A stretch of 63,005 bases of DNA, the filler included, from Chiloscyllium plagiosum (lineage: Eukaryota), in the NCBI RefSeq assembly GCF_004010195.1. It is 4 parts of 4 records of this genome, joined end to end, with 100 filler letters (N's around TTAATTAATTAA, not from the genome) between each part and the next. Parts side by side here need not be neighbours in the genome. Positions count along the whole stretch, not along the records: positions 31,607 to 55,596 come from NC_057733.1; 3 more parts are not named here. The stretch is one strand, 5' to 3'. The notes under the pieces were generated by a model that saw nothing but the letters and a program-made list of their open reading frames with translations, was not told where the DNA came from and ran no database searches. Below, piece after piece: positions 18,413 to 62,660 of this stretch (within the stretch, counting starts at the first letter, position 1; the number at the start of each line of letters is the position of its first letter). A program made the position numbers and the translations under genes.

Positions 18413-18939
18413 GTAAGAACCTTAAACTTTTTCAGTAAATGTTTCTATTAACGTTCTATTTATGTGAATAATTTCTGAATTACTTGAAACTCACATTCTG
18501 TGCTGAGTTTGGTTTGGTTCCGGCTGATTTTTGTTCAAGCTGTTTATAGACTTCAATTAAGGCTCAGCAAACAGCTAAAGTGGTGATGATGGAGTCCATT
18601 GTTCAGTGTATTTCTTTTTTTGATCAGATGGGCATTCTGTGTGTCTGGGTTACTTGAAACACCTAAAGTCTCTTAGCCAGTAAAGCATAAATAATGTTTA
18701 ATGTCAATGACATCCTGACTGTGAGTTTTATTATCGACAACAAGTGCTAAGTATTTAAAGATGTTCAAAATGTTACCAAACGTGATTAAAATATGCTAAA
18801 ATATCTTCAATACATTCCCGTATACATAACGTTCTTATCATGATTGTATTTTGTCGTTTATTTTGTTAATTTTGTCGATGACAAGCACGTTAGAAACTGT
18901 CATAACATTTTCTTGCGGTGCTATATTTCATTCTGATAT

Positions 18940-19190
18940 GTTAGATTCTGATTTTGTTTTAGTTGATTCTGTTGAAATGAGCAGTTTGGCTTTTGAATTC
19001 GTTTTATTTGATTCAGCTGAACTGAGTTGTTTGGCTTTTGAATTTGTTATATTTGATTCTTTTGAATTGAATTGTTTGGATTCATCTTTCATTTAAACCT
19101 GTTGTTTTGAGTTGATTGGAATCTGATTTTATTTTCCTTGATTCTGTTTAATTGAATTGATTGGATTCTTATTCAGTTTGTAGAATTGAT
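18940..19190. repeat. Degenerate T-rich tandem repeat (~36-bp period) in the J-C intron
   Basis: Recurrent tttggcttttgaatt / tttgattct units. Confidence 0.6.
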
Positions 19191-19770
19191 CTGCGTTTTC
19201 ATGCTTTCAGTAATTGGTGGTTTCTTTCTGGTGAGGAGATTGTCTGTCTGGATTACTTTTAATCACGAATATTTGTGAAGTTCTTTGTTTTTCCTGAATC
19301 GTTTCTGCATTTGTTAAACTCGTATGGCAATTTTTTTTCTCTGGTTGACTGAAAACATTTTATCTGTTTGCAACTGTCTGAAAACCAATGTAAGGCAGAA
19401 ACACGGAAGTGTGAGAAATAAAAAAAGAAACGACATTTAAGTACATTGACTTTTTTTTTAAAACAATCTCAGTTCTAATTGTAAACTAAGTGAAGTTTGT
19501 TTTGAGTAACCTCATTCAAACTAAAAATTGGGACTAAAATCTTAAACTGCAGAATTGATCAGATTACGTAACTGAAACTAAATTTAGTATAACATATAAT
19601 TATAATGTGGTAACGTTTGTCCATTGAACTAATTTTGTTTTGACCTTAAAGTGATTACTCAATATATGCCTTCAACTGCTCTACTGTGCACTGTACCAGA
19701 TTGACATGATCAGGAAGGGTGTACAGGTTGGAAATAAATTGAACCATTGTAAGAATCGTTAATGCTTTAA

Positions 19771-20390
19771 GTCATAGAGTCATAGAGATGTACAGCACAA
19801 AAACACACCCTTCTGTCCAACTCATCCATGCCGACCAAATATCCCAACCCAATCTAGTCCCATCTGCCAGCACCCGGCCCATATCCCTCCAAACCCTTCC
19901 TATTCATATAGCCATCCAGATACCTTTTAAATGTTGCAAAAGTACTAGCCTCCACAACTTCATCTGGCAGCTCATTCCGTACACATACCACACTCTGCGT
20001 GAAAATGTTGCCCCTTAGGTCCCTTTTATATCTTTCCCCTCTCATCCTAAACCTAGGCCTTCTAGTTCTGGACTCTCCCACCCCAGGGAAAAGACTTTAT
20101 CTATTTATCCTATTCATGCCGCTCATGATTTTATAAATCTCTGTAAAGTCACCCCTCAGCCTCTGACGCTCGAGGGAAAGCGGCCCTGTCTTATTCAACC
20201 TCTCCTTATGGCTCAAATCTTCCAACCCTGGCAATGTCCTTGTAAATATTTTCTGAACCCTTTCAAGTTTCACAACATCTTTCCAATAGGGTGGAGACTA
20301 GAATTGCATGCAATATTTGGCTTGATGAAATAGTGGTCTAACGAATGCCCTGTACAGCCGCAACATGACTTCCCAACTCCTGTACTCTGT
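19771..20390 (-). mobile_element. CR1/HER1 LINE 3' fragment
   Basis: ORF 19854-20081 (GESRTR...RDLRGNIFTQSVV..N.LP.EVVEA) and a catagagt tail. Confidence 0.85.
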
Positions 20391-21433
20391 TGTTAACAAA
20401 CAAGGCTGCTGTTATGACTTCCTATTTCTATTCAATTTATTTATTAGTCTGCTTGATGGTGTGCAGTTTTGTTGGATTTCAATTTGGGAATTTTTTGTGT
20501 GTGAGGTTACCTCATGTTCCTTGTTCTGCTGAAAATGTTTGCAGAGCCAGTTCTGCTGCAAACACATCATTGTTCCTCAGTTTTGTGATTTGGTGATCGT
20601 TGTTCTATTGAGGAGGGACTGTGCTGGGGTAACATTAAATTTGTTATATTTGGGAAATTGTTTCTGGTTTCTACATTGTTTTTGCACTGTTTACATGGTT
20701 GGTGATAGTGAACCGCTCTAGTTTCCTCATTCAATTCAATCAGCATGCGAGTTGAAATTTTATCAAGCCTAATATTAAGTGAAAGACAAATCCCAAAGGT
20801 TTTGGAAATGAAGGGAAAACAGACACTTTAGGACGTGATTTTTACATCGAAATAATAATTACCGATTAATCTAAACCACTCTTTACATTCCAAATTCAGA
20901 ACTCAACTGTCTAGTTCAATCACAAGTTCTGTCTTTAAACAGTTTACAAGTCATAGGGAAATATAAATAGAATTTCATAAGTATAATGTTCTCATAGCTT
21001 TTGCTATTGAGTGAAAATGCCATGACTATAATATAATTAATCAAGAAACACTTTTCAGTTCCTCTGTACATCACAACCAAGTGTTCTGGCTGGAAAAGAT
21101 AATTGGCAAATACTATTTGGAAATTCTGCTCAAAATATTTCCATGAAGAACAGATCAATTTCATTGTTTTGATCAGTTTCAAAAGTAACTTGAGTGAATA
21201 ATTGTTTTGTCCCTGATTAAACTGAATTTGCAGGAAAAAATGAAAACACTAACTGTGTGATTTAATCTGCACAGTGCTTTAGGTGTGCCCAGTCATTGCG
21301 TTTTAAATAAATAGTAACATTTTACAACAAAATATCAACTAAACAGTCATTCGTTAGGAAACAACTGCTGTAGTGAATTATGTGACCAAGGCCAAATTTC
21401 GAATTAATTAAAATAATCCACTTGTGAACACAC

Positions 21434-21760
21434 AGGGCAGCATGGTGGCTCAGTGGTTAGTGTTGCTGACTCACAGTGCCAGGGACCCGGGTTCGATTGC
21501 AGCCTCGGATGTGTGGAGTTTGCATATTCTCCCAGTGTCTGTATGGGTTTCCTCTGGTTTCCTCCCACAATCCAAAGATGTGCAAGTTAGGTGAATTGGC
21601 TATGGTAAATTGCACATAGAATCCAGGGACCTGTAGGTTAGGTTGCTTTATTCAGGGGTAAATACAGGCTGGGGGAATGGGTTTGGGGGGTTACTGTTTT
21701 CAGGGTCGGTGTGGACTTGTTAGGCCAAATGGCCTGTTTCCATACTGTAGGAAATCTACT
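21434..21760 (+). mobile_element. HE1-type tRNA-derived SINE
   Basis: A box tggctcagtgg, B box ggttcgatt, central tgtgtggagtttgca core, and a 3' tail shared with the CR1/HER1 ends. Confidence 0.85.
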
Positions 21761-21994
21761 CTGAAACCATGGAAATACTTGCTGCAAACCCAGACAATAT
21801 ATTTTACATCTATGTTTCCAGACATATGCAGAGATCACAAATTTGCAGAAGACAGGAACTAAAGGGTAACAGAACACCTTGTTTACTCAAACACTGAAAA
21901 TAGAGCAATATTTATATTAATTGGTATACTTGACCGAGTATTGTAATGTAGCAATCTAACGGAGACGGTTCACATTAGTTAAGTATGGTGATCA

Positions 21995-22325
21995 TTTAGA
22001 TTAGATTTCCGACAGTTTGAAAACAAGCCATTTGGCCCAACAAGTCCACACCGACCCTCCACAGAGTAGCCCACCCAGACCCATTTCTCCCAACTAATGC
22101 ACTTAACCTACACATACCTGAATACCATGTGCTATTTAGCACAGCCAAATAACCTGACGGTCATGTCTTTGGACTGTGGGAGGAAACCAGAGCACCTGGA
22201 GAGCACCCATGCAGACACATGGAGAATGTGCAAGCTCCACATAGACAGTCACCCGAAGTTGGAATCAAACCCGGGTCACTGGTTCTGTGAGACAGCTGTG
22301 CTAACCACTGAGCCATGGTACCGCA
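21995..22325 (-). mobile_element. HE1-type SINE
   Basis: Reverse-complement copy of the same SINE, with a (ttaga)n tail. Confidence 0.8.
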
Positions 22326-25300
22326 CACATTCGTTTAGAAAGAATCTTAAAGTGTGCAACTCCATTCAGAAACGTTTTGAATTCATATCTTTTTTAACAC
22401 TCTCGCTCATTACAAAGCAGTTAACAAGAAAATGAACTTGCCATTGCAAAACAAACATGACAGTAAATACTTGCCCTAATGTATTCAACACAAATGCGTT
22501 TCCACACTGGAATGCTATATTGGCTTTATGCAGTGCATGCAACATCTCCAAAGTTCAAGAAATGTTTTAAGAATATGTGAAATAATTTAGAGAATAATTC
22601 TTTTCCTCCGAAGCTGTGCTTAAATTGGCGATATGCCTTACTTCAATAATTTCGTTAATTACAATGACTTATTAAGTTTATTAAATCGGTGGTTATCTAT
22701 GTTCATTGTGAACACATTGTCGTTCACCTTAATGGTTAACCCCTGGTTAGTTCCTCTGAAGAATGTTAAATTACAGTGAATCTATTTGACATGAGGAATT
22801 GAGCAGATGCATCTGCTAGGTTTAAGACTGTTGTACAGTTTGTTTCAGTGCTACCTCCAACTAACTTGTCCAGCGGTCCTGACCATTTGGAAAACGTTTG
22901 GCTCAGATATCTGAATCTCACAGAGTTCATTTTCATCTCGCGCTTCAAAGCCACTTTTATCTGCGATAAATGCAATATTTGGTTAGGTACTTCAGAATTG
23001 AGAGCACTGACTAAATTGTTCTAATCAGAATGAACACTTCAGTAACAAAAGGCAAATTGCAAGAGTTGTTGTCAACAAGGGATATTTGATTGAGCGAGGC
23101 AGATGGAAATATTCTGCATATTTTATTTGTGTCTCAGTTGTCCACAGTTGTTTAGTGGCATAATGTAGAATCAGAAATTATTTTGAATCTTATTTGAAAA
23201 CCTATCGCCAGCTTTTAATGTCACTGGCAACTGTCATAACACACTTCAAAACATTTTAATCTATTTCAAACTAAGTCGACCATCTGGTGGAGCAACATTC
23301 ACAGAAATAAGAGGAAGAGCGTTCTAGGTTGAAATCCAGTGACAGTGAATATATAGCAATGCAATTTCTAGTTTTATTCTTGTGTTACCATAGAGTTTGA
23401 ACTATTCGGAGCTGTTGTCAAAGTATTCTTGGATAATTGTTGCAATGTTACTTTCAATTGGTAAGCATTCTGTAACAATCCCTGGTTGCTGGAAGGTGTT
23501 AATAATTAACATGATTCACTCATAGGTGGACTGTGTTCTCGGTGATAGTGTCGAGCTCATTGTGTTCAGATCAGTTGTGATGTTGCAGTAGTGTCGCTGA
23601 CTCTGAGGCATATTAGGGAAGTACGTAATACTATCTCTTATTAGTTTAATTCGGGGCAAAAAAAACACATTGAGTTGTTTGGGTGTTGTTGGAATTCCAC
23701 TCACAGAGGCCTGTTAAATCTATTTAATTGCTCTCCTGACTTGTGTCTCTTCGATATTAAACAGACTTTTGGCGGTTAGCAGCTTTTTCCAGGTCAATAT
23801 TTGTTCACAAGCTTTTGGGCATCTCGAGCTGGGGTTAATGGAGTAAGTCCTCAAAGAAATCCCAGCTTTTGACTTGCTGTTCGAACAATATCATCTATAA
23901 CTAATCCAAAGTAAAATTTTTGAAGCATGTATAATGAGATTAGGTGTAGGCTGTTTTACTTTGCATTAACTCAGTACTGCAGCTGAATTTGATTGTTCAG
24001 TACGCTGGGGTTTCCATTGGATCCAACACTTGCAGCAGATGGTGATAGCTTTTCCATTCGTCTTCAATTGATATCTCAGATCATTCAGTACTTCTGCTAA
24101 GAATTCTTTTCCAACAGGAGTCAATCAAACTTAATCGCTGTCTAACTCAGCAGGTGTCAGTTCTTGGGCCAAAAACATGAAAACAATTTGCTGAAGAGGG
24201 TGTCTCTGGACATGAAATGTGTTAACATTGCTTTCTCTCCACATGAGCTGTCAGACCTACTGAGTTTCTTCAGAAATTTCTGTCTTTATTTCAGTTTTCT
24301 AGCATTCAAAGTTTGTTGTTTCAGTTAAAAAAAGTTATTTTACATGAAATAAGTTGTTCGGACAGAAAATTCATTTGATCAAATTGAGAATGTTCAGAGA
24401 TAGTTATTATCAGAGAATCATTGAATGTGAGCAATCTGATCTTGAAATGCCGTTTCACAAGGAACTGTATCATGAAGTAACAATACACTCCAGAGTGCAG
24501 TGGCTGCTGTAATTGGGGTGGGGGTTATTCTGATCACTCAAATAGAGAATGTCGATACTCCTATTCCAAATTATCGACAAAAAATTGGGTTTTTTTTAAA
24601 GAATGTGTGAAACAATTAATTTGTTGAAATATTTTAATAAAATGTGTTCAGCATCAGTGCTAGTCTAATGAATGACTCAATGATAGGAAGGTAGGAGTAC
24701 GAGTAGGGCATTCAAATCCTCGAGCTGTTCCACCACTTACTTTGATCATGGTGCATCTGTGAGCTAACTCAATTGGCAAAACTCTTTAACACCTTGGGTT
24801 AACAAACAAAACCTAGCCTAGATTTACTGATTTGACTGCCCATAACAAAGGGAGACACCGTTTCTGAAAGATATTTCTATGAGCATTTAAAGTGACACAA
24901 TGAGGCTGTAATTAATTGCTCATGAAAATAAGCTTTAAATCTCTGACAATTTCCAATTCAAACATCTGAATCATCATATTACATTAAATTAACATTATAT
25001 TTCTTTATTCCAGGGAAGTATAATGTATGAGTGCCATGCTAAAAATGAGGAAAGCTTCATTCCCATTATATGATTAAGAAATAGTTCTGTTAGTCAATAA
25101 AAACACAGTCAAACCACACAGAAGGAAACCTTTCAGCATGTTAGTTGAGTGGACACACAAGTGCCTCAAATAATTTTCAATTTTTCCAGTGGTTATTTGC
25201 ATCTCTAGACAGGCGTGGAAGTGTCAGACATTTATATCTCCTTGAGAAACCAGTTGTCACCAGCTTACTTGAATTGTTGAAGTTCATGTGGTATTAGTAC

Positions 25301-25809
25301 ATTCACAGCGCCTGTTAGAAAGTGAGTTCCATGACTGTGATTGAGGAAGAGTAAAGGCGCAGGGAAATAGTTGCAAGACAAGATGGAACATTATTTGGAG
25401 GAAAGCTTTCAGGTGAAGCACTTACATGAATGTGCGTCCTTATCCTCAAAGATCACAGTTTTGGACCATGCTGCTGAAGGCACATGTCCGCATACAAATT
25501 AGAAGCTGAAGAATGTCCCTTGGCTCCTCTAGAATGCTATTCCATTCATAGGATCATCATAAATCTTGCTTCTCAACAGTCTTTCCGATACCCGATAAAA
25601 TTGATCCCGATTGTTTACTGTTCAACGAAAAAATGGTCAACCTTTGGAATTCTACACCACAGAACTTGATTGAGGTCGACACATTAAATGATTTCAAGGA
25701 GGAGATAGATTCCTTCAATCCTCAAGAAAATACTATGAGTATATGGGGGAAAAGGCGAGTAGGGTACAAAGTTGGTTGAAAGCCATGAAAATATTGAATG
25801 GGGCATGGT

Positions 25810-26360
25810 TGGTAAGTCTGCACATGACACCAAATCTGGTGTTATAAATGGCAGTGAAAGTTATCTAAACGTATAATGAGATATTGATCAGCTGGGCCAA
25901 TGGGCTGAGGAGTGGTAGATGCAGTTCAAATTAATATGTCGTTTTGCTTTTTGAGAAGATAAATCAGGTCACAACTTACTCAGTTAATGGTAGGGCACTG
26001 GGTAGTGTTGTCAAACAGAGAGACCTGGAGGTCCAGACACATAGATTCTTGAAAGCGTTGTCTCAAGTAGCTAGCCTTTTGAAGGTGTTTGGCGCATGTA
26101 CCTTCATTGGTCACAGCATTGAGTACAGGAGTTAGGGCTTCATGTTGCAACTGTGCCAGTCATTGAAATGAACCACCAAAGGAAGGGCTAAATGCAGAGA
26201 CAGTTACAACATTTAGAAGCCATTTGGACAGATACAAGAACTGGATAGGTCTGGATGGAAATGGGCCAAAGGTAGGCAAATGGAATTAGTCTAATTTGGG
26301 AACTCTAGTCAGAATGGATGAGCTGGACCAAAGGGCCTGTTTCTGTGCTGTATGAATTTA
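25810..26360 (+). mobile_element. Decayed CR1 LINE ORF2 3' portion
   Basis: ORF 25944-26135 (YSVNGRALGSVVKQRDLEV) and a CR1 3' tail near 26340. Confidence 0.7.
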
Positions 26361-26639
26361 TGGTGGAGCAGGCTCGAAGTTTGAAGGTGCTGAGCTAGTT
26401 AGGGGATGGAATCGTAATGTGGGAGAGTTTGAGATGGTAGGCTGTGAGATGTCGGGTGCCTGCTGGGCAAGCTTGAGTGCTCCTCCTCTGGCAGGGTGGC
26501 ATCAACGCAAATGGTAATGGTCACAAGGATAATTTGGTTGAATTGTGCTTGGTAGGTGAGGGGCAGTTTGAGCTGAAATGCAGGAGGTCTGTCTTCGCCA
26601 AACTTGTTAGTGGAGAGATCAACAGGTTGCCAAGCCAAT

Positions 26640-26935
26640 TATTGGAGACCTGGGCATGGTGTCAAGCTGGTTAGTGGAGAGGTGGGCAGGGTGCCAGGCT
26701 GGTCAGTGTAAAGGTCAAAAGGGTGTCAAGCTGGCTAGTGGAGAGATGGGCACGGCGCCAGACTGTTTAGTGCAGAGGTGGGCAGGGTATCAGGCTGATT
26801 GGTGTAGAGGTCAGCAGTGTGCCAGGCTGGTTAGTGGAGAAATTTTTAGGATGCCAGGCTAGTTAGTGAAGAGGTGGGCAGGGTGTCAGGCTGGTTAGTG
26901 TAGAGGTGGGCTGGGTGCCAGGCTGGCTTAGGGGT
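26640..26935. repeat. 32-bp G-rich minisatellite (gggcagggtgccaggctggttagtggagaggt)n
   Basis: About 9 tandem units, abutting the truncated Cmu3 remnant. Confidence 0.85.
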
Positions 26936-26950
26936 AGAAGGTCACTGTAA

Positions 26951-27038
26951 ACCTGGCTGAGTGGCAATAATTTTGAATGTGTGGTGAATCATCAAAATCT
27001 ACCGATTCCTCTGAGAGATTTCATTCATAAGGATAAAG
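26951..27038 (+). pseudogene. IGHM: 3' half of IgM Cmu3 exon
   Basis: [29 protein letters not shown] is homologous to the Cmu3 end at 60632-60720. The donor is mutated (ATGAGT) and the 5' half is absent. Confidence 0.85.
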
Positions 27039-27486
27039 ATGAGTGGTGAGATAAAAGCATAAAGGATTTCATGTGTAATTTAGATCCAGGTACATCAATG
27101 GCAGGCTTTGATTGGTAATGAGCAAACACCGTTGGGAGCATTAATGATGCCTCTGATGACAGGACAGCTGAGTAGCTGATTAAGAAAAAGATGCATCAAA
27201 GGGTATTCTATTCTGATTAGATCAGATAAGGTGGGAAGAAGTCTGGTTTGTGGTGGAACCATCAGCAATGACAAATGGATGGAGTGTGGGCTGGAAACAT
27301 AGAGGCGACATTCAAATTAAACTTTTTACTTCTGTTACTGAATAGAATGGATAGCATTCTGCTCCTTTGGAAAATGAAAGTGAATAAATCCCAAATTAAA
27401 CATGGCATATTTTAATATTTAGTGAAATTGCAATATTAATTCTGGATTTTGATAATTGATTTATATTTGTTTCAAATAGTTTGCAG

Positions 27487-27878
27487 CAATAATACCATTG
27501 GAGCCATCAGTGCCTGTCCTCCTGCCACTAACAGAAGAAATCTCCGCACAGAGGTTACTCTCCCTCACCTGTTCAGTGAGATGTTTCTCCTCACGAGAGG
27601 TCTTTGTCAAGTGGACAAACAATGACAAGCCTGTGAATCCCAGTGACTACAAGAACACCGAGGTGATGGCAGAGAGCCACAACACCTCCTTCTTCATGTA
27701 TAGCCTGTTAACCATTACAGCGGAGGAGTGGGGCAGAGGTGCTTCTTACTCTTGTGTGGTGGGACATGAAGCGATCTCATTGACTGTTCTGTTGATGATC
27801 TTCAATAATTCCAGCGGTAAACCGAGTTTTGTGAACATTTCACATGCACTGATGGACACTGTTAATTCATGTCAATAA
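27487..27878 (+). CDS. IGHM: IgM Cmu4 + secretory tailpiece exon (open frame, in a decayed cluster)
   Basis: tttgcag acceptor; [10 protein letters not shown]...LSLTCSV...VKW...YSCVVGHEA...[20 protein letters not shown]. Internal TM donor G|GTAAAC at 27817; AATAAA at 27915-20. Confidence 0.93.
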
Positions 27879-31506: not shown

Positions 31507-31606
31507 NNNNNNNNNNNNNNNNNNNNNNNNNNNNNNNNNNNNNNNNNNNNTTAATTAATTAANNNNNNNNNNNNNNNNNNNNNNNNNNNNNNNNNNNNNN
31601 NNNNNN
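31507..31606. other. Assembly spacer N44-TTAATTAATTAA-N44
   Basis: Exactly 100 bp. The same structure recurs at 55597-55696 and 59310-59409. Confidence 0.97.
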
Positions 31607-36099: not shown

Positions 36100-37560
36100 G
36101 TAGCAAGAATGCCAATTAGTCCCTTCTCATTACACAGCACCCAACATAGAATAGTCTGTCCCCTAGTTGGTTCCTCAACAAACAATCTCGCTCAGTGTTC
36201 CATATTCTCCTCTATTGCATTGTTACTGATTTGATTTACCTAATCTATATGTAAAGTTGCTCATTATTACAACCATACCTTTATTGTTAATTATACCAAT
36301 TTAACAGAGCTAATATCCTTCCTCACTATTTTGTTATTCACTTGTTAACTAGCAATGCTACCTCACCTTCTTTTTCTCTTTGTCCTTCCTAAAATTGAAA
36401 TACCCCTGGATGTTCAGTTTTCATTATTGGTCACCCTGCAGCCACATCAATGTAATCCCAATGATATCATATCCATTTATGCCTATTTGCACAATTGATT
36501 TATGCACTTTATGGCAAATGCTTCAAGCATTAGGGCACAAGGCCTCAAACCTTGTCTTCATAATATTTTTAGTTCTGTTCACATTATTTAACACTGCAGC
36601 TTGAATTCTTTGCCGATTAATTTTCTTATTTTCCATTGTGTTTTTTGTCTTTGCCTGACTCCATGTATAGGTTCCCGTTTCCCTGCTATTTTAGTTTAAA
36701 CTCTCCACAACTGCACTCAAAAATACTCCCCTCGGAGTCAGTTCCAATCTTGCTCAAGTGCACCCCAGTTCCACCTTCCCCAGAATCAATCCCAATGTCC
36801 AAGCCATCTCCCCTTTGCACTATCTCTCCAGCCACATATTTATCTGATATATCCTGCTATTTCTACTCTGATGAGCACATGACACTGAGAGCAATCCTGA
36901 TATCACTACTTTGATTTTCTACTTTTTAACTTGCTTTATAAATCCCTACATTGTGATTTTAGGACCGCCTCCCGTTTTTAACCCAGGTTATTGGTACCAC
37001 TGCGACCACTGTCTGTTCAGCCTCCCACAGGAATGACCTGTAGCCACTCCAAGATGTTCTTGACCCCAGCAGCCAGGATGCAACATATCATCCTGAAATT
37101 TTGTTAGTGGCCACAGAAACATCTATCTGTTCGCCTTAGAATTGAACTCTTTATAGCCTTCCCACACTTCCTCCCCCTTTCCCATGCAGCAGAGTCAACA
37201 GTGGTGAAACAAGTTTTGCTGCTGCGACTTTGCTCTGGGAGACCATAACCCCAACAGTATCCAAACTGGCATGTTTGTTTGGCAGGGGAATAGCATAGGG
37301 GCTTCCTGCACTGCCTGCCTATTGCTCTGTCTGGTGACCACCCATTCCCTCCTTTGTTGTAGATCTGGGCCTGCAGAGTAACCAGCTGTCGGTACATGGT
37401 CTCCATGACACTGCTGAAGGTCTGAAACCCGGGCTTCCAGGAGCTACAGATGGAAATACTTGCTGCCCACATCAAACTGTGCCCGCCTTCTCACAGAGCA
37501 GGAGGAACACATCACAATCGTGAGCACTGCTGCTCTGACTTACTCCTTTCAGTGAAACCC
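36100..37560 (-). mobile_element. Highly decayed CR1-like ORF1/ORF2-start fragment
   Basis: ILRRTDRCFCGH motif (37104-37475) and nucleotide similarity to 31607-32510. Confidence 0.6.
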
Positions 37561-37756
37561 TCAGGTTGCCCTGAAATCAAATAATATTATATACACAGGG
37601 GTGCTTTTTTAATCTGAAAATGCAATTTATTGCCCTTTAAAATGATAAGACCAAAATAAAGAACCTAAAGATCTTACAAACAATAAGGGATAAAAATATT
37701 ATTAATATGATTATATTATTAACCCAGGCGTACTCACCAACTTCGCTGCTTCTTCT

Positions 37757-38070
37757 TAGATTACTTACAGTGTGGAAACAGGCCCTTCGGCCCAACAAGT
37801 CCACACCGACCCGCCGAAGCACAACCCACCCAGACCCAGTCCCCTACATTTACCCCTTCACCTAACACTACGGGCAATTTAGCATGGCCAATGCACCTAA
37901 CCTGCACATTTTTGGATTGTCGGAGGAAATCGGAGCACCCAGAGGAAACCCACGCAGACACGGGGAGACTGTGCAAACTGCAAAACAGAGAGTCGCCTGA
38001 GGCGGGAATTGAACCTGGGTCCCTGGCGCTGCAAGGCAGCAGTGCTAACGACTGTGCCACCATGCCACCA
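37757..38070 (-). mobile_element. HE1-type SINE
   Basis: Near-identical to the copies at 29706-30470. Confidence 0.9.
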
Positions 38071-38773
38071 TGTCTCTACATGAATCCTGAGGTCATCTCA
38101 GGTGATGTTCCTGTGGGATCAGTATTAAATTGCTATTGTATTTCCCAAAGTCATACAAAATGTCTCTCTGATGCTCTGTGCCTTTGGTTTCACTGTGCTG
38201 CTGCTTTTAAACTATGCCCAGTGTTTCCCATCAGGTATGCTGCCTTTCATGTTTCAAAATTTGAATGAATACTTTATAGTGGAGAGGCTAATAGATTTGT
38301 GACACAGTTTCTTCTCTCTCTGTATGGTAGTGAGCTCTCACTGCTTTTAGGTATGCACCAAATCCCCAAACCAAACACTGAGAATGTGAGAGAAACTCAG
38401 TAGATCTGGCAGCATCTAAAGAAAGATAAACAGAGTCTGGCATAATACTTCATACCTCCAGAAATTGATTTCAATCTACAGGATGAGGTCATTTCTTACA
38501 GGTGGAGGTTGCAAAACCTAAACCTCCATCACTGACTGTGCCCATCACCCTGACACTGGAGACGTCTCCAAATTAAAATCTCAAACATTAACCTCCAGCA
38601 GCTGGTATAACTGCCTGGAAATATTCAAACACCATTCAATTCAAAATTAAATTGCAAATGCTTTGGGATGTTTAAACAAGGCCTTCCTGATTGCTCACTT
38701 TTTTTTATTTTGAAAGTTAATGAGTAATAGAAAGAGCAGAGCAGTCTGGAGTTGATTTCACCAGAATTGCATT

Positions 38774-39880: not shown

Positions 39881-42800
39881 ATGGTTTCGTATTATATGAT
39901 AAGTATTTTTCCTGTCATCTTATGCACTTTTCCATCTTTTGCACAATGTAAGTCTTGAAGTGCTTCTCAATATTTGGCTCCATTGAATACTCATTCTCAC
40001 TGCACTGATGTGAGTTAATGAAAATTACTGTTTTTCAGGTTTCTTGAAATTAAATTGTGAGTCATCAGTGACAGGAATATTTAGTAAAGACACTAAACTA
40101 CCATGCACATTCAATTCAGCATCAAATATGACTCTGACACATATCGAACTAGTTAAAATGGAAGAAGATAGAATTGTTGAAGTATTTACCTCCAAGAAAA
40201 GTGTCAATGGAATTCAGGGTCGGATTAAATTACTTCACCCAGAATCTCAAGATGTATCACTGGTAATCCAGAACACACAGTTGTCAGATATTGGGACATA
40301 TCAATATCATTTGGAATCAAGTGTTGGTCATGACACTGGTGTGATTATATTGCAGGTTAAAGGTGAGTGATTATTCTGTTTCTGATCTTCCTAATTGTAG
40401 AATGTTGGTTGCAAGTAGTTGGTAACAATTTCTGGTTTTGTTCTCATCCTTAAAAGAGAAATAGGGGCATGATTAAATCGTATGGTCCATCAAGCATGCT
40501 CTCCCATTCAGGGAGAAAGTGAGGACTGCAGATGCTGGAGATCAGAGCTGAAAATGTGTTGCCGGAAAAGCGCAGCAGGTCAGGCAGCATCCAAGGAGCA
40601 GGACAATCGACGTTTCGGGCATAAGCCCTTCTTCAGCCCTTCTCCCATTCAGTCTGATCATCTTTGATCTTGGGCTGCAGCTCCACTTTCCTGCTCTAAG
40701 CCTAAAAAAACATCTGTCAGTCTTAAGTGTATTCAATAATGCAGCATCCACAACCCTCTGGGATGAGGAAGGTTTACAGAAGTTTACATACCTGTGAGTG
40801 AACAATTATAATCCTAACTCAGTTTACCGGAGACTGTGCTTTTGTGGTTTAAATTTCCTGACTGGCAGAATCAATTTCTCTATAACTATCCTGTAAGGCC
40901 CTTTCAGAATCTTACATGTTTCAGAGAGATCACCTCTCACTCTTTTAAACCCCAGAGAATATAAACTCAAAGCAATCAATCTTTCAGCATATGAAAACCA
41001 TCTCATTCCATAACTAAATGTTGTGAACTTTCACTATACTGTGACCAGTGCAAGTCTGTCTTTCCTTAAATGTGGAAGCTAAAACTGCATTTGGACTCTT
41101 GATGTGGTCGCACCAAATACCTGTCTAACTGTAGCAAGACTTCTTTATTCTGCTACTTTAATCCCCTTGCAATAAAGGACAGAATGCCCTTCGACATTCT
41201 CGTTGCTTGCTGTACATACATGCTAACATTTTGTCTTCCTTATTCCTGTCCATGGAAAGTCCCACCTCAAAGAAAACACGAATTATGAAGCTAGTCTCAT
41301 TCCACTAATAATATTGTAATCATCCCTTTTAGCTCCATACAACGTGACCATATTCCCAAACATTATATCAACGAGAAGGGTAAATGTCACCTGTGAAGCA
41401 ATTGGATATCCTCTGGCTCAGATTCATTGGTTGTTGAATGGAACAAAGAACCTCACATCCAAGGTTAATACTCGCAGTGTAAAATCAGCAGAGGAACTGT
41501 ACAAGATCACGAGCACACTTCAAATCACAGAGAAAATAGATATTCCAGAATGTGTTTACATTTGTGCCGTGTGGAGCATGGAAGAGGGTCAATATGTGGT
41601 GCAGAAACACCTTCCATGTAAGTTTGCAACATTCACTCATGAAAGGATTTTGGAAAGTCGATGTTTAAAGAACTAATATATCTAATTTGTTCTTAATATG
41701 TGAACAATATTGCAAGATTATATTGAATAATCATGACTATTTACACTGAAATGTTTTGGGGGATCTTGTTTTAAATTATTGCAGCCTTTTTTCTCAGTGT
41801 CGTTTAAAAGTCAACTTTGCTATTGTTAATGAATAGAGTCACAGTTCGGTACAGATATTCCCAGACCAAACAGAAGCTATGTGGCCGGTCTGAGAATTAA
41901 GATTGACTGTTAACTGCTCATGCTGCAGCTCCAGGCCCAAACGATGAGCACCCTCTTCTCACTCTGTATAAAATGGGGTCTCATTTTATAAATCTCATTA
42001 TTGCATTCTAGATCTAATGAGTACGAAGTGAAATGCTTCAACTTTTAGTCATGTCTTAGTTCTGCTGTTAATTGTATATTTTTCACCCACATTGTCTGTT
42101 TCAGTCTTTCATCAAAGCTCTAACCGTGATGGTAATATTGAAGAGAAAGATAAAAATGTTCTCATAGCAGCCTTTCTGATTATCACCCTTATTTATGGTG
42201 CATTAGTAATTTCTGCTCTTCCACAGTTTAGAAGAAGTTCACATCCAGGTATTTTGATCATTATAGTTATTGCATAATTATGCTAATCACACAAATTATG
42301 ACATTGTCTTACGTTTTGAAACATTTGTTATTATCCTTATTTTGAATATGCTCGTAATCCAGAATCCAATGCAGTTTAACTTAATTATATATCAAATATA
42401 CAATTTCCAAGATTCAATAAAAATAATTGACAGAATCTCTAACATTCTGAATAGCTCCAGATTCAGTCTCTCACTCTAATCTCCTCATTAATACAGTGTT
42501 TCTTACATATCCCTTAGTTGAAATATTGGAAAACAAATATCTTTAAATTACTGATGGAGAAGCATTTGCTGAATAGTTTGCTAGAAAGAAATGTTGAGGT
42601 ATCTCAAGTTATGAATGTTGCCTAATTAATTACAATCCTTGCTTAAAGAAAAGATGGATAAATAAAAACTACACATTCACTTGTCCTGAGCTCCCACATA
42701 AAGGAGATAGAAATGTTTTTGGTGAGTCAGACTGAACTGCTGTGAAGACATTCTATTCAGTCATTTCCATTGAACATCACAGAAAAGATGTGACTCAGTC

Positions 42801-44911
42801 ATCCTTTGGTGGTCCAAGATATAAATATTAAACTTATGATGTTTTGGACAGGGCAAGGAGAATAGAGAAGGAAGTAAACATTTTTTCTTCTTAGTTGTGT
42901 GTAAAGCTGGCATTTATTTCCCAGAGTGAATAACTATGGGATGCTGCTTGACCTTCTTTATCATAGTTTAATACCTGTAATCAGACTGATTCCAATCTAA
43001 AAAACAGATTTACAGAATCTTACGTGGATTTACATGGGCCGACATGACACCAAGTGTTAAAGTTCACTTGAGAATGTTTCTTTAAAAAAGTTCTGCAATT
43101 CACAAACGAAAGAACTGAAAACAACATGTTCATTCTAAAAGATGAGGGACTTAACAAACTATCCTGGTCAATTCAGAGTGAACTAATTGGTGTGCTATTT
43201 GCATTATATTTATATAGGGCTGCAACTTTCCTCTCCAAAAATACATTAGTTTTTAAGCTAGATATTTAGTGAAGTGTTCTCAAATTATCGAAGCCTGTTC
43301 ATTACGTGTGCTGATACTAGGCCCTTCAAGAAAATCTAAAATCAAATTCTCACACTGTGCTTGGTTATTTGAACTTCTGAATCACAGGTCCAAACATTAG
43401 CAATTTGGTAACTTAATCATGAGATTACCATAGACTTCTAGTTGTTAGAAAACTGAAATCTTAGAGGTTCGCTGATTGCAATTATTTTGTATCAATTTGG
43501 TTATAAAGGTATTTTCGCCCTTTGACAAAGGAGCAGGACAAACTATCTGAATTGAGTTCAATAAATGTGATGCTTTTATATCTGTCAATATTGTCATGAT
43601 CATCCAGAGATTACTGCCTTTTCCAAGATTGAGTTTGGAGCTATAAGAATGAATAAACTGCAACATTTTGCAGAAGAATGTGTTAATTAAAATCAACTGT
43701 TATATGCCAGAAACAATGAATTCATTGTTGTGTTGCTTTATTTTCAGAAATTAGAAGAGAATTTGAAATCCCGATGGTAAGTGTGATTTCAAGTATCTGC
43801 ATGTTTTTAAAAGCTTTCTGTCATGGACCAGGCCTGACCCCTCAAAACATTTTCAAGCAGGTAGCCTAGACCATAACTTTGCTATTTGTTTCAGGTAAGT
43901 GTACAGGGGATGTTCCCAGAGTGAACTAGTTGGTCTGACTGCCAAGTTTTAAACAAAGAATTTATTTACAAAATTACAGAATGAAACACAAAGAACCAAA
44001 AATACAACTTATCCGATCCAAACACCCGACAGATATCCCAACTTAATGATGCTGTTCCAAAATACTTCCAACAGTCCCAGTAAACAGACCCCTTAGCACA
44101 AAGAGTTAAAATGACACAAAAAGCTTACAGGTTACAAAGTCAGAAGGGCAGGAGGAGGGAGAGAGCTTCCAGTTTCAACTGTGATCCTGACTCAACTTTT
44201 TTAAAGAAACATTCTCAAGTGAACTTTAATACTTGGCATCATGTCGGCTCAGATAAGTCCACGTAAGATTCTGTAAATCTGTTTTTTAGATTGGAATCAG
44301 TCTGAACATTATAGCACAGACAGTCTCACACAGGGCACCTCACACCTTCAATACATTATCTGGGCCAACATGACACCAACTGTTAAAGTTCACTCGGGAA
44401 TGTCACTTTAAAAAAGTTCTGCGATTTTATGTATGAAAGAACTGAAACCAACATGTTCATTCTAAAAGATGAGAGACTTAACAAACAATCCAGCTCTTTT
44501 TTAATATATAAATTCAGTTACATCACACTGTAAACTTCTGTTATAAATTCTGTGTCTTACGATCTTATACTCCACAATCACCTGATGAAGGAGCAGCGCT
44601 CCGAAAGCTAGTGCTTCCAAATAAACCTGTTGGACTATAACCTGGTGTTGTGTGATTTTTAACTGATTATACCATTTTTTAAAGACATGAAAGCCTTAGG
44701 CTCATTATCTGTTAGGGGTAAACAAAAAGGGCCCCAACAAAACCTTTCAAACCCAGCCTAGTTGGAGCGTGGCCAATTACCCCCTCTCTGAAAAACACAA
44801 GGGCACAATAACTTTGAGATAGGCTCAGCTTTGTGACATTTGTCTCACAACTTTTAAAAGTCTTTTTTCCGTTTTAACCAGGTGTCAAGCGACCACAGGA
44901 TTAATGTTTAA
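39881..44911 (+). CDS. B7-family type I membrane protein, PD-L1/PD-L2 (CD274/PDCD1LG2)-like; exons 39881-39947, 40039-40362, 41333-41617, 42105-42248, 43748-43776, 44882-44911
   Basis: All introns are GT-AG with compatible phases (1,1,1,1,0); 879 nt = 292 aa + stop. Order: signal peptide, IgV, IgC (APY...VTCEAIGYPLAQIHW...EELYKITSTLQI...YICAVW), TM (VLIAAFLIITLIYGALVISAL), tail RRSSHPEIRREFEIPMVSSDHRINV*. AATAAA overlaps the stop. Confidence 0.85.
40039..40362 (+). CDS. IgV-set exon of the B7-family gene (atypical)
   Basis: TKLPCTF, GRIKL, DVSLVIQNTQLSDIGTYQY. No C-strand Trp, and Tyr replaces the F-strand Cys. ttttcag acceptor and GTGAG donor. Confidence 0.88.
40511..40640 (-). mobile_element. 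Short Penelope-derived insertion in the IgV-IgC intron, with TSD
   Basis: Flanked by tctcccattcag direct repeats; reverse-strand hammerhead motif. Confidence 0.75.
41333..41617 (+). CDS. IgC exon of the B7-family gene
   Basis: TCEAIGYPLAQIHW and LYKITSTLQI align by eye with PD-L2 TCQATGYPLAEVSW and PD-L1 LFNVTSTLRI. Both Cys and the Trp are present. Confidence 0.9.
42105..42248 (+). CDS. Stalk/transmembrane exon of the B7-family gene
   Basis: tttcag acceptor; 21-residue hydrophobic stretch followed by FRR; phase-1 GT donor. Confidence 0.85.
43819..44838. mobile_element. Possible solo LTR (TGTCAT...GTGACA) interrupted by a Penelope-derived repeat (~44195-44665)
   Basis: TG..CA inverted ends with near-TSD tttc/tttg. 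The inner repeat ends in CTGATGA-AGGAGCAGCGCTCC-GAAAG and has partial direct and inverted copies at 42980-43165. Confidence 0.45.
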
Positions 44912-55596: not shown

Positions 55597-55696
55597 NNNN
55601 NNNNNNNNNNNNNNNNNNNNNNNNNNNNNNNNNNNNNNNNTTAATTAATTAANNNNNNNNNNNNNNNNNNNNNNNNNNNNNNNNNNNNNNNNNNNN
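55597..55696. other. Assembly spacer N44-TTAATTAATTAA-N44
   Basis: Directly visible. Confidence 0.97.
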
Positions 55697-57246: not shown

Positions 57247-57580
57247 ATGTTCCGAATTTGCAGAATCCTCCTGATGTTTTCCACTCTGACCTCCAGGGAT
57301 GTGACTGGAGAAGGCGATGTCACGCAACTTCCTTCGTGGATGGTTGTTCGTGAAGTGGGAATTGCGTCCATGAATTGCTCGATTGCCACTATGTCGAACG
57401 CAATGTTTTGGTACAGACAGGTCCCGAATCAGCCACCCCAGCATCTGGTGATGGCCAAAAGGGAAAATGATCAGCCCGAGAGGATCACTGCTTCAATCAG
57501 TGGAGACTACAAACTCAGTACACTGACTGTGAAAGACGCCAGACTTAATGACACTGCAATCTATCTCTGTGCAATGAAGA
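57247..57580 (+). CDS. TRAV: T-cell receptor alpha/delta-type V segment, open, with the leader apparently in the same exon
   Basis: MFRICRILLMFSTLTSRDVTG-EGDVTQ...ASMNCS...MFWYRQVPNQPPQHLV...STLTVKDARLNDTAIYLCAMK. Both Cys and the WYRQ motif are intact. Confidence 0.88.
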
Positions 57581-57619
57581 CACAGTGTTACAAACAGATG
57601 GAGAGCGCGTACTAAAACC
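57581..57619 (+). other. 23-RSS of the TCR V
   Basis: CACAGTG at 57581-87, exactly 23-bp spacer, ACTAAAACC at 57611-19. Confidence 0.95.
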
Positions 57620-59309: not shown

Positions 59310-59409
59310 NNNNNNNNNNNNNNNNNNNNNNNNNNNNNNNNNNNNNNNNNNNNTTAATTAATTAANNNNNNNNNNNNNNNNNNNNNNNNNNNNNNNNNNN
59401 NNNNNNNNN
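59310..59409. other. Assembly spacer N44-TTAATTAATTAA-N44
   Basis: Directly visible. Confidence 0.97.
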
Positions 59410-59654: not shown

Positions 59655-60046
59655 TTATTGACACGAATTAATAGTGCCCATCAGTGCAAGTGAAATGTTC
59701 ACAAAACTTGGTTTACCGATGGAATTATCGACTGTTCTGTTGATGATCTTCAGTGGAATCGCTTCATGTTCCACCACACAGGAATAAGAAGCACCACTGG
59801 CCCACTCCTCTGTTGTATTGGACAACAGGGTGTACATGAAGAAGGAGGTGCTCTCGCTCTCCGCCATCACCTCGGTGTTCTTGCAGTTACTGGGATTAGC
59901 TGGCTTGTCATTGTTTGTCCACTTGACTAAGATCTCTCGGGAAGAGAAGCCTCTCACTAAACAGGTGAGGGAGAGAAACCTCTTAGCGGAAACGTCTTCT
60001 GTTGGTGGCAGGAGGATCGACACTGATGGCTCCAGTCGCTTTTCTC
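59655..60046 (-). CDS. IGHM: IgM Cmu4 + secretory tailpiece exon (second cluster, open frame)
   Basis: ctgcag acceptor; [34 protein letters not shown]...[19 protein letters not shown]...[20 protein letters not shown]. Confidence 0.94.
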
Positions 60047-60170
60047 CTGCAGAATATTTGAAACAAATATAAATCCACTATAAAAATCCAAAATCAATAT
60101 TGCAATTTCAGACATATTAAAATGTGCCAGTTTTGTTTTTAAATTTGGGATTTATACATTCTCATTTTCT

Positions 60171-60424
60171 GAACGAGCAGAATGATATCCATCCTAATCA
60201 TTAACAAAAAAGAGTTTAATTCGAAAGTCGCCTCCATGTTTCCAACTCACAACTAAGACATCCTGTACATTTGTCATTGCTGATGTTAAAAACACATGAA
60301 CGAGCAGAATGATATCCATCCTAATCATTAACAAAAAAAGAGTTTAATTCGAAAGTCGCCTCCATGCTTCCAACTCACAACTAAGACATCCTGTACATTT
60401 GTCATTGCTGATGTTAAAAACACA
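60171..60424. repeat. 127-bp tandem duplication in the Cmu3-Cmu4 intron
   Basis: gaacgagcagaatgatatcc...gttaaaaacaca occurs twice (60171 and 60298). Confidence 0.9.
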
Positions 60425-60631
60425 AAGCAGGTTTCTTCCCACTTTATTTGACTTATAATAAAAAAGAACAAGCTTTGGTCCATCTTGTTCTCAATCAGAT
60501 ATTTAGATATCCTGACATCAGACACATGTTTAATGCTCCCAACGTTATCTGGAGCCAATCCAAGCATGCCATGTATGTTTCTGGATCGAGATTACACATG
60601 GGATGCTTTGTTTTTTCATCTCACCGCTCAC

Positions 60632-60939
60632 CATTTTCCTTGTGGATGGAGTCTCTCAGTGGAGTCGGTAGATACAGATGGTTCACCAAACCTTCAAAAC
60701 TAACGTGACTCATCCAGGCTTCAGTCGAAGTGCTTAATTTGCTGGTCACGCTGTCGGGATTTTCTCCAGGCCGATTCGAGATCTCTGATTTCAGAGTCTT
60801 CTTTTGTTGTACCAGGTGACATTGGCACCAGAAGGAATATTGGACACAACACAGGTTAATGTCACCGTCGCCCCCAGGAAGATGTGTTCTCATGGAGGTG
60901 GTAGGATTGTAACTATGTAATCGTGGCAATCAGTAACTC
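60632..60939 (-). pseudogene. IGHM: IgM Cmu3 exon, disabled
   Basis: GVTDCHDYIVTILPPP*EHIFLGATVTLTCVVSN...VTW / frameshift / KTLKSEI...TEAWMSHVSFEGLVNHLYLPTPLRDSIHKEN. In-frame TGA, frameshift and second Cys to Gly; splice sites intact. Confidence 0.9.
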
Positions 60940-62400
60940 CTATGAAACAGAAATCAAATCAATGAAAAATGCCTCTTTAGGATCAAAACACCGAGTCTTC
61001 AGGCTATTCACTCATGAAGTGAGGAAACCACCTTTGACATGGCAGCTTCCAAATGTTGCTGAAATGATGGTTCCTCTTGCTGATATATTTTGATTTGTGA
61101 AAACATTTGTTATTATCTATTAAATCACCCATGTATGTATTATTGGTGTGAGATCATTCTCAAAAACATACCATGAGATATTATTCCTCCTGTCAAATTT
61201 ATAGTAGGTCTAAAAGCAAAACAGTGAATTTCTTAGTAGAATAAAAACAAAACAAATACGAGTATCTAACATTATTCTACAAATTAATGGAAATTTGCGT
61301 GAGCATTATTCAGACGTCCAGTGATCACTGTGTGAACATCTCCATCCGGACACCAGGCTGAAGACGCCTGACTCTAATTCCTCGTTCGTTCATCGCCACT
61401 GCAGCCATCCCACTAAAATGTTTTCTCCTGCCACATCCACTAATTGCAGAGAGTACCTTAAAGAGTTCCAATTAGGTCCTGTTTATCCGGATTGATCAAA
61501 TGTGATAGCAACTTGCTTTGTGGCCTGGTCCCATGAATGAAGTTAAAGAGCTCAGAAAAATCTATGTTGTATAATGCCCAAGTCCAACAGGTCATTCCTG
61601 AGCAGGAAATGAAGCATTGAACACATTTTGATTTATTTTACAACAAGGGTCACTGCATATTTTACCTTGTTATTTTGAGACCACAAGATAATAAGATATA
61701 GTAGCAGAATGAGGCAATTCGGCAAATCGAGTCTGCCCTGCCATTCGATCATGTGTGATATGTTCTCTACCACATTCTCCAGCCTTCTCCATGTACTAAC
61801 CGATCAATCGCTATCATAAATACAGTCACTGACTTGGCCTCCATGACCGTCTGTGGTAATGAATTCCACCACCCTCTGGCTGAAGAAATTCTGCCCCACC
61901 TCAGTTACAAATGGTGCACCCTTTGACTCCGAGGCTATGCCCTCGTGTCCTACTCTCGCCGACTTGTCAAAACATTTACTCCACGTTCACCCAAACCCGG
62001 CCTCCCTGTATGTTTTAAGTTTCAAAAAAATACTTCTGCGACCCTAATCCCCCGGCCCACACAAGACACGCACCCCTCCCCCACCGGCTAAATGAAGTCA
62101 CCAGGCGTGGATTCAGCACTCTAATGCCTCTCCAAGTGTGGTCAGACATCAAACAACTTTATAAAAAAGACTGTTAAACCAGCTCACATGTCTTCAATAT
62201 AGAGGAAAACATGCTCTTCTGATTAGACATAATGTTGAATTATGAGCAATGCTAATGTCACACTCAAACTGAAATGCATGACACGTTTTTGAATGGGATG
62301 CTGCACACTTTAGTGCTGTTGACTAAGTTTGATAAATGTGTGTATCTGATCCACATCGGAGTTCAGAATGATTTCTAGTGCTCTCGTATGTATGTCTTAC

Positions 62401-62660
62401 CCTGGGGTGTGGTGATGCTTTGACTTTGAGTGTTCTCTCCATGAGTGACCTGGCGGGTAAACACTGCGTTGTTGAACCATTCGCCATAACAGCCGGTCAG
62501 CCGATTCATTACCGAGAAATTCCCATTCACCTCACACACAGGAGATGTGAAGACACCAGAATCCACGGATTGGCCATTGTTCAACCAACTCATGGAGATT
62601 TGCTTCAGATGGAAATCAATGATTGAACATACGATGGTTGCAAACCTGCTACTTTCTTGC
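62401..62660 (-). pseudogene. IGHM: IgM Cmu2 exon, 5'-interrupted
   Basis: [25 protein letters not shown]...VCEVNGNFS...[14 protein letters not shown]...TPQG|GTAAG. Second Cys to Arg; the 5' end is replaced by CR1 sequence. Confidence 0.9.

Follow-up and report, generated by a model that had tools for sequence, protein, structure and literature searches.

SECTM1 (K12), encoded at human 17q25, is a ligand of CD7 and is induced by interferon-gamma in myeloid and epithelial cells. The SECTM1 and CD7 genes adjoin one another in mammals (PMC4603632, PMC3769348). For CD7, a clinical CAR-T target, no natural ligand other than SECTM1 has been reported (PMC10320215). The SECTM1 protein has two invariant cysteines, at positions 38 and 55, no canonical cysteine pair, and the motif GxYxWxLxGxQ; it has been reported in eutherians alone and its ancestry is described as unclear (PMC4603632). 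Among the B7-type ligands, sharks have a canonical single PD-L1 in which, as compared by eye, both the tryptophan and the cysteine are kept (PMC12151841 supplementary file 1).

The gene described here, from the bamboo shark Chiloscyllium plagiosum, is an intact, divergent B7-type gene encoding a type I membrane protein whose two immunoglobulin domains are a V and a C. Comparing it with SECTM1 through the published description of the latter, we think that it probably belongs to the lineage that gave mammals SECTM1, a role as ligand of a CD7-type lymphocyte receptor being predicted from a sturgeon relative. This reading draws together the cysteine pattern, a partial F-strand motif, a CD7-like neighbour in fused fish gene models and the predicted binding of a sturgeon pair. 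We hold with moderate confidence the broader proposition that the family is pre-mammalian SECTM1, with V+C ligand and CD7 receptor neighbours and partners since the first jawed vertebrates, and that its orthologues have expanded into a large set of fish genes automatically named CD276-, PD-L- or ICOSL-like.

Structure of the gene and its product

Within the window, by which we mean the whole 63,005-nucleotide stretch of DNA that was analysed, the gene occupies 39881..44911 on the plus strand. Translation gives six coding exons and a 292-residue product with no stops, the exons having AG/GT ends throughout and phases of 1, 1, 1, 1 and 0, and the product is identical to RefSeq XP_043570554.1 (P0007; Chiloscyllium plagiosum 'PD-L2-like X4', 292 aa). 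The coding part of the leader exon (39881..39947, phase 1) begins at the ATG at 39881, behind an acceptor at 39864. It is followed by an IgV exon at 40039..40362, assigned from alignments and a Pfam V-set match (E 4e-11), and by an IgC exon at 41333..41617 (Pfam C2-set_2, E 1.4e-5; best PDB match PD-L1, E 8e-7) with Cys151-Cys208 and a GYP-x5-W motif, present in the product as TCEAIGYPLAQIHW. A stalk and transmembrane exon (42105..42248; predicted helix 237-270) leads to two short cytoplasmic exons, the first at 43748..43776 with a phase 0 end and the last at 44882..44911, which reads VSSDHRINV-stop in frame and has an AATAAA at 44910; the cytoplasmic tail is about 25 residues long. A sequence-only reading of this DNA had described a complete six-coding-exon gene with consistent phases, a PD-L-like exon layout and the IgC motif, and on each of these points it was right.

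The order of leader, IgV, IgC, transmembrane segment and short tail, with each domain on a phase-1 exon, is that of the B7 family, and the closest solved relatives of the whole protein are CD276 (B7-H3; E 2e-15) and PD-L1 (E 5e-11). CD276 is thus the best whole-protein PDB match, and many members of the family described below have been given its name automatically. Layout and IgC GYP motif are equally those of PD-L1 and PD-L2, and the best fold matches, at roughly 21% identity, are to PD-L1. The B7-type V+C ectodomain is shared with butyrophilins as well.

An altered V-domain core

The V domain of the gene product is non-canonical, a point that the sequence-only reading missed: it has no C-strand tryptophan, and Tyr112 replaces the F-strand cysteine. 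Its cysteines are Cys29 in the A strand and Cys45 in the B strand, 16 residues apart, and would be joined by an intra-sheet disulfide that replaces the standard one. A strand-A cysteine 15-17 residues ahead of the B-strand cysteine marks the family, and in an alignment census it was present in 28/28 elasmobranch, 4/5 coelacanth-type and 48/49 other bony-fish rows versus 0/7 canonical B7/BTN rows. The F-strand cysteine was found in none of the 28 elasmobranch rows, in 1/5 coelacanth-type and 34/49 other bony-fish rows and in all 7 canonical ones. Elasmobranch members have lost both the F-strand cysteine and the C-strand tryptophan; across 82 rows, counted with kinship ignored, 42 had lost both residues, 34 had kept both and 6 were mixed. 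At the level of aligned residues, this distribution shows what would be a stepwise swap of the V-domain disulfide, from three cysteines in many bony fish to an A-B pair alone in elasmobranchs. A further residue of the V domain, Gly119 in the F-G hairpin, is invariant.

These features invite comparison with SECTM1. Both proteins have two N-terminal cysteines 16-17 residues apart and no canonical pair, and both place an aromatic residue at the F-strand cysteine position within GxYx(W/Y)xL, although the spacing is 17 in SECTM1 and 16 in the shark protein, which has tyrosine for tryptophan (GxYxYxL) and lacks the final GxQ of the motif. Tryptophan stands at this position in 4/5 coelacanth-type rows, and GxYxWxL in 3/5. 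Local duplication is another shared trait, as is a form without a transmembrane segment, RefSeq isoform X5 (P0003) paralleling secreted SECTM1. On the other side, SECTM1 has one immunoglobulin domain and the shark product a V and a C, and SECTM1 is reported as eutherian-specific whereas the family occurs in fish. Eutherian SECTM1 would derive from the family by loss of the C domain; V-only members exist in the family (P0164, P0069). SECTM1 was not among the matches listed in the PDB sequence, coelacanth V-domain fold and atlas searches, which is no evidence either way.

A family across jawed fishes

This gene and two bamboo-shark paralogues (the latter falling within XP_043570548-50) share about 50% identity. 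Their family is multi-copy in 13 elasmobranchs, occurring in sharks, rays, skates, coelacanth, sturgeon and teleosts, salmonids included. The idea that the gene is a cartilaginous-fish-specific paralogue was accordingly rejected on the coelacanth, sturgeon and salmonid members. The literature searched yielded no account of the family. The gene itself, first proposed as an undescribed co-signalling ligand, plausibly is such a ligand. RefSeq already models it, with five isoforms (XP_043570551-5) automatically named 'PD-L1/2-like'; these names are automatic and misleading.

In a careful tree of 27 rows, hand-picked across groups from 89, the 22 family rows were split from 5 canonical rows with support of 100/99, the elasmobranch, coelacanth and ray-finned groups each fell on one side of a branch, and the family stood apart from the PD-L1, CD276 and butyrophilin rows. 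The full 89-row tree was built by a quick method only, and two of its long-branch groups have tentative positions. Forcing the elasmobranch rows together with two PD-L rows was rejected (p-AU 0.004), a test made against frog PD-L1 and one PD-L-like row only, with shark PD-L1 left out. Orthology with PD-L1 was rejected on this test, on the loss of the V core and on the existence of a separate shark PD-L1, in agreement with the initial view of the gene as a divergent B7 and not the ordinary CD274 orthologue. CD276 rows differ from the family in keeping the canonical V core and lying on their own 100/99 branch. Butyrophilins differ in the V core and the branch and by their B30.2/SPRY domain, for which the gene product gave no match at E up to 10. 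Identity as a butyrophilin was rejected on the missing domain and the tree, and nothing here favours the suggested butyrophilin-like TCR ligand.

A CD7-like neighbour in bony-fish models and a predicted complex

The evidence for a CD7-like neighbour comes from bony fish, in the form of two automatically built, fused gene models. The sturgeon model P0202 reads, in order, a SUMO-like piece, a Jupiter-like piece, a family member, a V-TM receptor with a YEEM tail and a PDZ protein; in the model P0144 a family member precedes a related V-TM receptor whose tail reads YEVM. In the sterlet, the V-TM receptor on its own (P0204) and a family member (P0203) lie on the same record. The best match of P0204 among PDB chains other than antigen receptors is human CD7 (E 1.4e-6, and E 1e-7 in a second search), antibody and TCR V chains outscoring CD7 to put it at rank 28 and then rank 12. 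Within the window there is no CD7-like gene, and a shark CD7 was not found. From the two fused models, the family would sit head-to-tail ahead of the CD7-like gene.

Modelling of the V domains of P0203 and P0204 gave a predicted complex scoring 0.83 in 3/3 runs, against 0.01 for the best of three controls, with contacts agreeing to at least 94% and a partner pLDDT of 90. The score mark used is reached by 51/78 solved microbial complexes versus 2/108 mismatches and, among eukaryotes, by 39/65 solved pairs versus 2/126 unrelated pairs. In this sturgeon pair the N-terminus and F-G hairpin of the family V domain would make the contact with the V domain of the CD7-like receptor, on the GFC face that PD-L1 uses, and by analogy with mammals engagement would co-stimulate T or NK cells via the tyrosine motif of the receptor tail. 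The predicted interface centres on Gly128, which is invariant in 60/60 family rows and corresponds to Gly119 of the shark product. Resemblance to solved complexes of the PD-1/PD-L1 type could account for this score, and a score above the mark does not single out the family member that binds. The shark product has Ser-Ser in the predicted interface where most members have Thr-Asp; given also its two paralogues at about 50% identity, the bamboo-shark copy may have changed partner.

Alternative explanations

Were the resemblance to SECTM1 no deeper than the Ig fold, the family would be a B7 subfamily of its own in fish that mammals have lost, its cysteine pattern convergent and its partner either the neighbouring receptor or an orphan of the CD28 family (CD28HL1-3, CD28X). 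The tree does hold a distinct B7-type family, no direct SECTM1 match was among those listed, and four CD28-family receptors absent from humans occur in sharks and bony fish (PMC11599192). We nevertheless regard this account as unlikely: it would need cysteine pattern, tryptophan motif and CD7 adjacency to coincide by chance, the neighbour's best match outside the antigen receptors is CD7, and neither SUMO nor Jupiter appears among the markers listed for CD28HL1-3 and CD28X. Descent from a PD-L duplicate, making the gene a second PD-1 ligand in sharks, strikes us as distinctly improbable. Its attractions are the RefSeq PD-L1/2-like name, an IgC exon whose best PDB matches are PD-L1 and PD-L2, the PD-L1 fold matches, and two residues at PD-L1 positions that contact PD-1, with Phe24 (21 residues before the B-strand cysteine) at the position of Phe19 and Asp121 aligning with Asp122. 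Yet Asp121 is kept in 16/60 family rows only, the whole protein matches CD276 better than PD-L1, and the topology test described above, with its two PD-L rows, and the canonical V core of the published shark PD-L1 both oppose such a grouping. Least credible of all, to our minds, is a dispensable copy of recent origin without a function of its own; species do differ in copy number, which ranges from 2 to at least 5, and read coverage is low with intronic contigs present too, but the frame is intact and the Hemiscyllium orthologue has 92% identity and a cytoplasmic tail identical at 19/19 positions.

There is also the placement of the gene among IgM clusters and a TCR V, claimed in the sequence-only reading. 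The elements themselves are real. The left IgM cluster (17251..27878, plus strand) has a pseudo-VH that has lost its first cysteine and contains an in-frame stop, a D segment with RSS near 17978, a frameshifted J near 18380 and a secretory CH4, and the right one is a set of constant exons on the minus strand (59655..62653) with CH4 open, CH3 frameshifted and a CH remnant at 62441-62653, so both clusters are decayed, as had been said. Between gene and right cluster lies an open TCR alpha/delta-type V exon with its leader in the same exon (57250..57619, plus strand; V 57250-57580, 23-spacer RSS at 57581), whose best single-V matches are TCR alpha chains. Continuity, however, is what the claim lacks. 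Three 100-base linker gaps (31507..31606, 55597..55696 and 59310..59409), each built of N44, a 12-base palindrome that stops all six frames, and N44, divide the window into four scaffold pieces, and no continuous sequence therefore joins the gene, on its 24-kb piece (31607-55596), to the left IgM cluster, to the TCR V alone on its 3.6-kb piece or to the right IgM exons. On present evidence the left cluster lies outside the gene's locus, and scaffolding, an assembly artefact, is the likely reason why IgM and TCR V pieces stand beside the gene. In catshark the family genes lie on a record of 131,918,509 bases while the antigen-receptor complex occupies chr17, where its genes extend as far as 133.54 Mb, which places the two on different chromosomes; in epaulette and stingray the family and complex records also differ, by indirect evidence. 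A gene truly within an IgM/TCR alpha-delta complex and acting as a butyrophilin-like TCR ligand is thus very improbable, even granting that IgM clusters and TCR alpha/delta V segments intermingle in the elasmobranch complex (PMC12227049), that scaffolding can mirror true proximity and that orphan Ig clusters occur outside the complex; the absent B30.2 domain speaks against it too, and the proposed linkage to antigen-receptor loci is unsupported.

Membership in the SECTM1 lineage, if true, would mean that SECTM1 is not eutherian-specific and that CD7-SECTM1 is an ancient, unrecognised co-signalling pair of B7/CD28 type. Should the family be the fish counterpart, the pair would be as old as adaptive immunity and fish could be used to test the function of the axis. 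For annotation, members of this family can go unnoticed in fish under the names 'PD-L1-like', 'CD276' and 'ICOS ligand', and in this assembly Ig/TCR adjacency may arise from scaffolding.

Upstream exons and transcript reads

Two alternative exons lie upstream of the leader on the plus strand, both placed by peptide matches and sequence. The first (37450..37564) matches exactly the peptides of isoforms X1 and X5, the latter being the one without a transmembrane segment, and isoform X2 uses an earlier donor near 37519; the ATG of this exon is likely not a working start. A GAS-like 9-mer at 37548 is 1 of 19 in the window, which is the chance level. The second exon (38062..38101), of isoform X3, lies at the end of a SINE-like repeat. 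Junction support had been proposed as a check on the gene model, and it was obtained in part: contig 13 of run X16, a run that is only putatively RNA, carries the junction 41617|42105 between the IgC and transmembrane exons, spliced exactly and with 0 differences. This makes at least one intron junction among the read-mapping rows listed, and repeats dominate the depth and joint tables. Run X22 placed no reads on the gene. A few reads of run X21 fall in the V exon, and their differences match a paralogue.

Structure and transcripts of the gene

The gene at 39881..44911 (+ strand) is intact, as the sequence-only reading had claimed: its six coding exons in the window sequence (39881-39947, 40039-40362, 41333-41617, 42105-42248, 43748-43776 and 44882-44911, all +) have canonical splice ends and consistent phases (1,1,1,1,0), and they encode the same 292-aa protein as RefSeq isoform X4 (P0007, XP_043570554.1). 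Used as a query, the third exon (IgC) gave a 100% match in a protein search to a cluster of five Chiloscyllium plagiosum RefSeq isoforms and one Hemiscyllium orthologue; the gene is already known as a RefSeq model. The window also contains upstream exons of the longer isoforms, at 37450 and 38062, and isoform X5 stops after the IgC exon, without the TM segment. The AlphaFold model has a TM helix and two Ig domains (mean pLDDT 74). Among four sequencing runs aligned to the gene, a contig from the putative RNA run X16 runs from 41617 directly into 42105 without any difference, giving exact junction support for one intron, and a contig from a second putative RNA run (X15) departs from the IgC exon precisely at 41617. 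The few V-exon reads from run X21 match a paralogue, and run X22 gave no reads on the gene. The RefSeq alternative first exon at 38062-38101 begins where a SINE-like repeat (37756-38066) ends. Just upstream of the leader exon, a 423-base tandem duplication (38774-39619; two copies, 98% alike) may be genuine or a product of the assembly.

A B7 family marked by an A-strand cysteine

The gene opens the way to an apparently undescribed B7 subfamily of jawed vertebrates, whose link to SECTM1 and CD7 can be tested. In a cysteine census by alignment (89 rows, 82 family and 7 canonical), an A-strand Cys was present in 80 of the 82 family rows versus 0/7 canonical rows. It lies 16 residues ahead of the B-strand Cys, where antibody V domains have their buried residue 6, opposite Cys22, so that an intra-sheet disulfide between the A- and B-strand cysteines is likely. 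The F-strand Cys is missing from 28/28 elasmobranch, 4/5 coelacanth-type and 15/49 other bony-fish rows, a loss mostly accompanied by that of the C-strand Trp, and the single coelacanth row without the A-strand Cys retains the F-strand Cys.

Structurally the gene qualifies as a member of the B7 family, and not as PD-L1 or a butyrophilin. A careful tree set 22 family rows apart from CD276, PD-L and butyrophilin rows (100/99), and forcing the elasmobranch rows with PD-L was rejected (p-AU 0.004). The proposal of a divergent B7 gene, distinct from an ordinary CD274 orthologue, holds up. The shark and skate PD-L1 in print retain the canonical Trp and Cys in the portion of the source available (PMC12151841), and they and the family are clearly different proteins. 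Phe24 and Asp121 occupy PD-1-contact positions in the gene's protein, a retention from which PD-1 binding is possible.

A first search gave 14 elasmobranch clusters and a later one 30, and numerous relatives from bony fish came up in a profile search. Ten profile-search relatives were looked up, comprising family members from elasmobranchs (4), coelacanth (3), sturgeon (1) and a salmonid (1), and one frog PD-L1, so the supposed specificity to cartilaginous fish falls away. Automatic names of the relatives looked up included CD276, PD-L1, PD-L2, ICOS ligand and butyrophilin. Members all lie on one record, as judged from record length, in 13/13 elasmobranch species with at least two members and in coelacanth, which points to one tandem cluster per species. 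In the open-access literature searched, we found neither this family nor a fish SECTM1 described; PMC13262535 makes no mention of SECTM1 or CD7, PMC11372145 and PMC10751288 hold nothing on point, and earlier recognition of the family is possible.

Domain number is plastic in the family, since the IgC domain is duplicated in stingray P0041-P0044 (V-C-C), skate members (P0069) are V-V-TM and the elasmobranch-clade P0164 is V-TM. The bony-fish models P0053 and P0054, with many family V domains in tandem, are probably fused tandem clusters. Coelacanth P0103, called "ICOS ligand" by NCBI, yet groups in the family and is one of three genes with consecutive accessions on one record.

Likeness to SECTM1 and a putative CD7-like neighbour in bony fish

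Two fused gene models place a family member beside a receptor. Sturgeon P0202 comprises, in order, a SUMO-like piece, a Jupiter-like segment whose sequence is that of P0107's Pfam Jupiter match, a family member, a V-TM receptor ending YEEM and a PDZ protein, which we take to resemble STXBP4 (17q22); bony-fish P0144 has a family member and then a related receptor ending YEVM, the two receptors sharing 30% identity over 89 residues. In human, SUMO2 and JPT1 lie on 17q25, SECTM1 directly precedes CD7 in the same transcriptional orientation, and signalling by CD7 uses a YEDM-type motif. The sterlet V-TM receptor P0204 is on the same record as family member P0203, and human CD7 is its best match outside antigen receptors, antibody chains scoring above CD7. 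Published marker genes of CD28H, CD28HL1-3 and CD28X, as far as the source was available, differ from the P0202 neighbours (PMC11599192).

We compared the family with SECTM1 because its cysteine pattern resembles SECTM1's. In the parts of PMC4603632 available, SECTM1 has invariant Cys 38 and 55, modelled as an intra-sheet bridge, carries the motif GxYxWxLxGxQ, adjoins CD7 and is reported missing outside eutherians. Three of five coelacanth-type family rows have GxYxWxL and the gene's protein has GxYxYxL, but the final GxQ is unmatched in the family. As SECTM1 combines a single Ig domain with the full motif and the gene's protein fails both strict features, we do not file the gene as SECTM1. 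It is likely that the gene represents the orthologous lineage of SECTM1 and works like it.

Complex prediction for the sturgeon pair, with P0203 residues 22-141 and P0204 residues 20-135, the alignments being unused by the folder, scored 0.83 in three runs versus 0.01 for the best control, with contact agreement of at least 94% and a partner pLDDT of 90. That mark was reached by 51/78 solved complexes and 2/108 mismatches in a microbial benchmark, and by 39/65 solved pairs and 2/126 unrelated ones in a eukaryotic benchmark; the pass may reflect likeness, because similar B7/CD28-type complexes have been solved. In the predicted interface, the F-G loop of the receptor packs on the N-terminus, C strands and F-G hairpin of the ligand, around a Gly128 found in 60/60 family rows (Gly119 in the shark protein). 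At the corresponding positions the gene's protein has Ser116-Ser117 versus the family consensus Thr-Asp, and the partner may therefore vary between paralogues. The partners of the human CD7 chains in the PDB sequence file (entries 12hp and 12np) might bear on this interface.

From the available parts of the sources, mammalian SECTM1 binds CD7 at 38 nM (PMC10320215), is interferon-gamma inducible and provides T-cell cytokine co-stimulation, and mouse SECTM1A also works independently of CD7 (PMC3769348). We lean towards a surface, possibly secreted, ligand that would engage a CD7-type receptor, an engagement that would co-stimulate lymphocytes.

Antigen-receptor neighbourhood

Three gaps of one 100-base form (N44, a palindrome with six-frame stops, N44) separate the pieces, and presumably are artificial scaffold joins. 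Ig and TCR elements are absent from the gene's 24-kb piece, and the TCR V has a 3.6-kb piece to itself. The CpG observed/expected ratio is 0.30 for the gene's piece, against 0.59 and 0.54 for the two pieces to its right. A published bamboo-shark assembly is Hi-C-ordered, with IgNAR on chr44 in the portion available (PMC7677710). IgM clusters and TCR alpha/delta V segments are described, in the part of the source available, as intermixed in the elasmobranch antigen-receptor complex, which in catshark occupies chr17, its genes reaching as far as 133.54 Mb (PMC12227049); both catshark family members are on a record of 131,918,509 bases, and the two therefore belong to different chromosomes. In indirect comparisons, from partial sources, the epaulette shark complex is on unlocalised scaffolds versus a 58.9-Mb record for the orthologue, and in stingray the locus numbers of complex and family are more than 1,200 apart. 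Given the joins and the separate catshark chromosomes, the linkage to Ig/TCR loci that had been read from the window is unsupported and likely an artefact; an orphan Ig cluster near the gene is possible. The original observation is confirmed for the gene and for the decay of the IgM remnants, and not for antigen-receptor linkage, and its interpretation is supported in part.

The TCR V (57250-57619, +) is alpha/delta-like: one open-frame exon carries both leader and V, the CDR2 region is short, and the 23-spacer RSS is close to perfect. A satellite with a 46-base unit and C-rich skew fills about 7 kb at 4546-11643, and some copies look like recombination signals by chance. A 90-base N gap inside the gene's piece (48372-48461) is without linker, unlike the three joins. 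A 128-base doublet at 60170-60424 is similar to the 423-base one.
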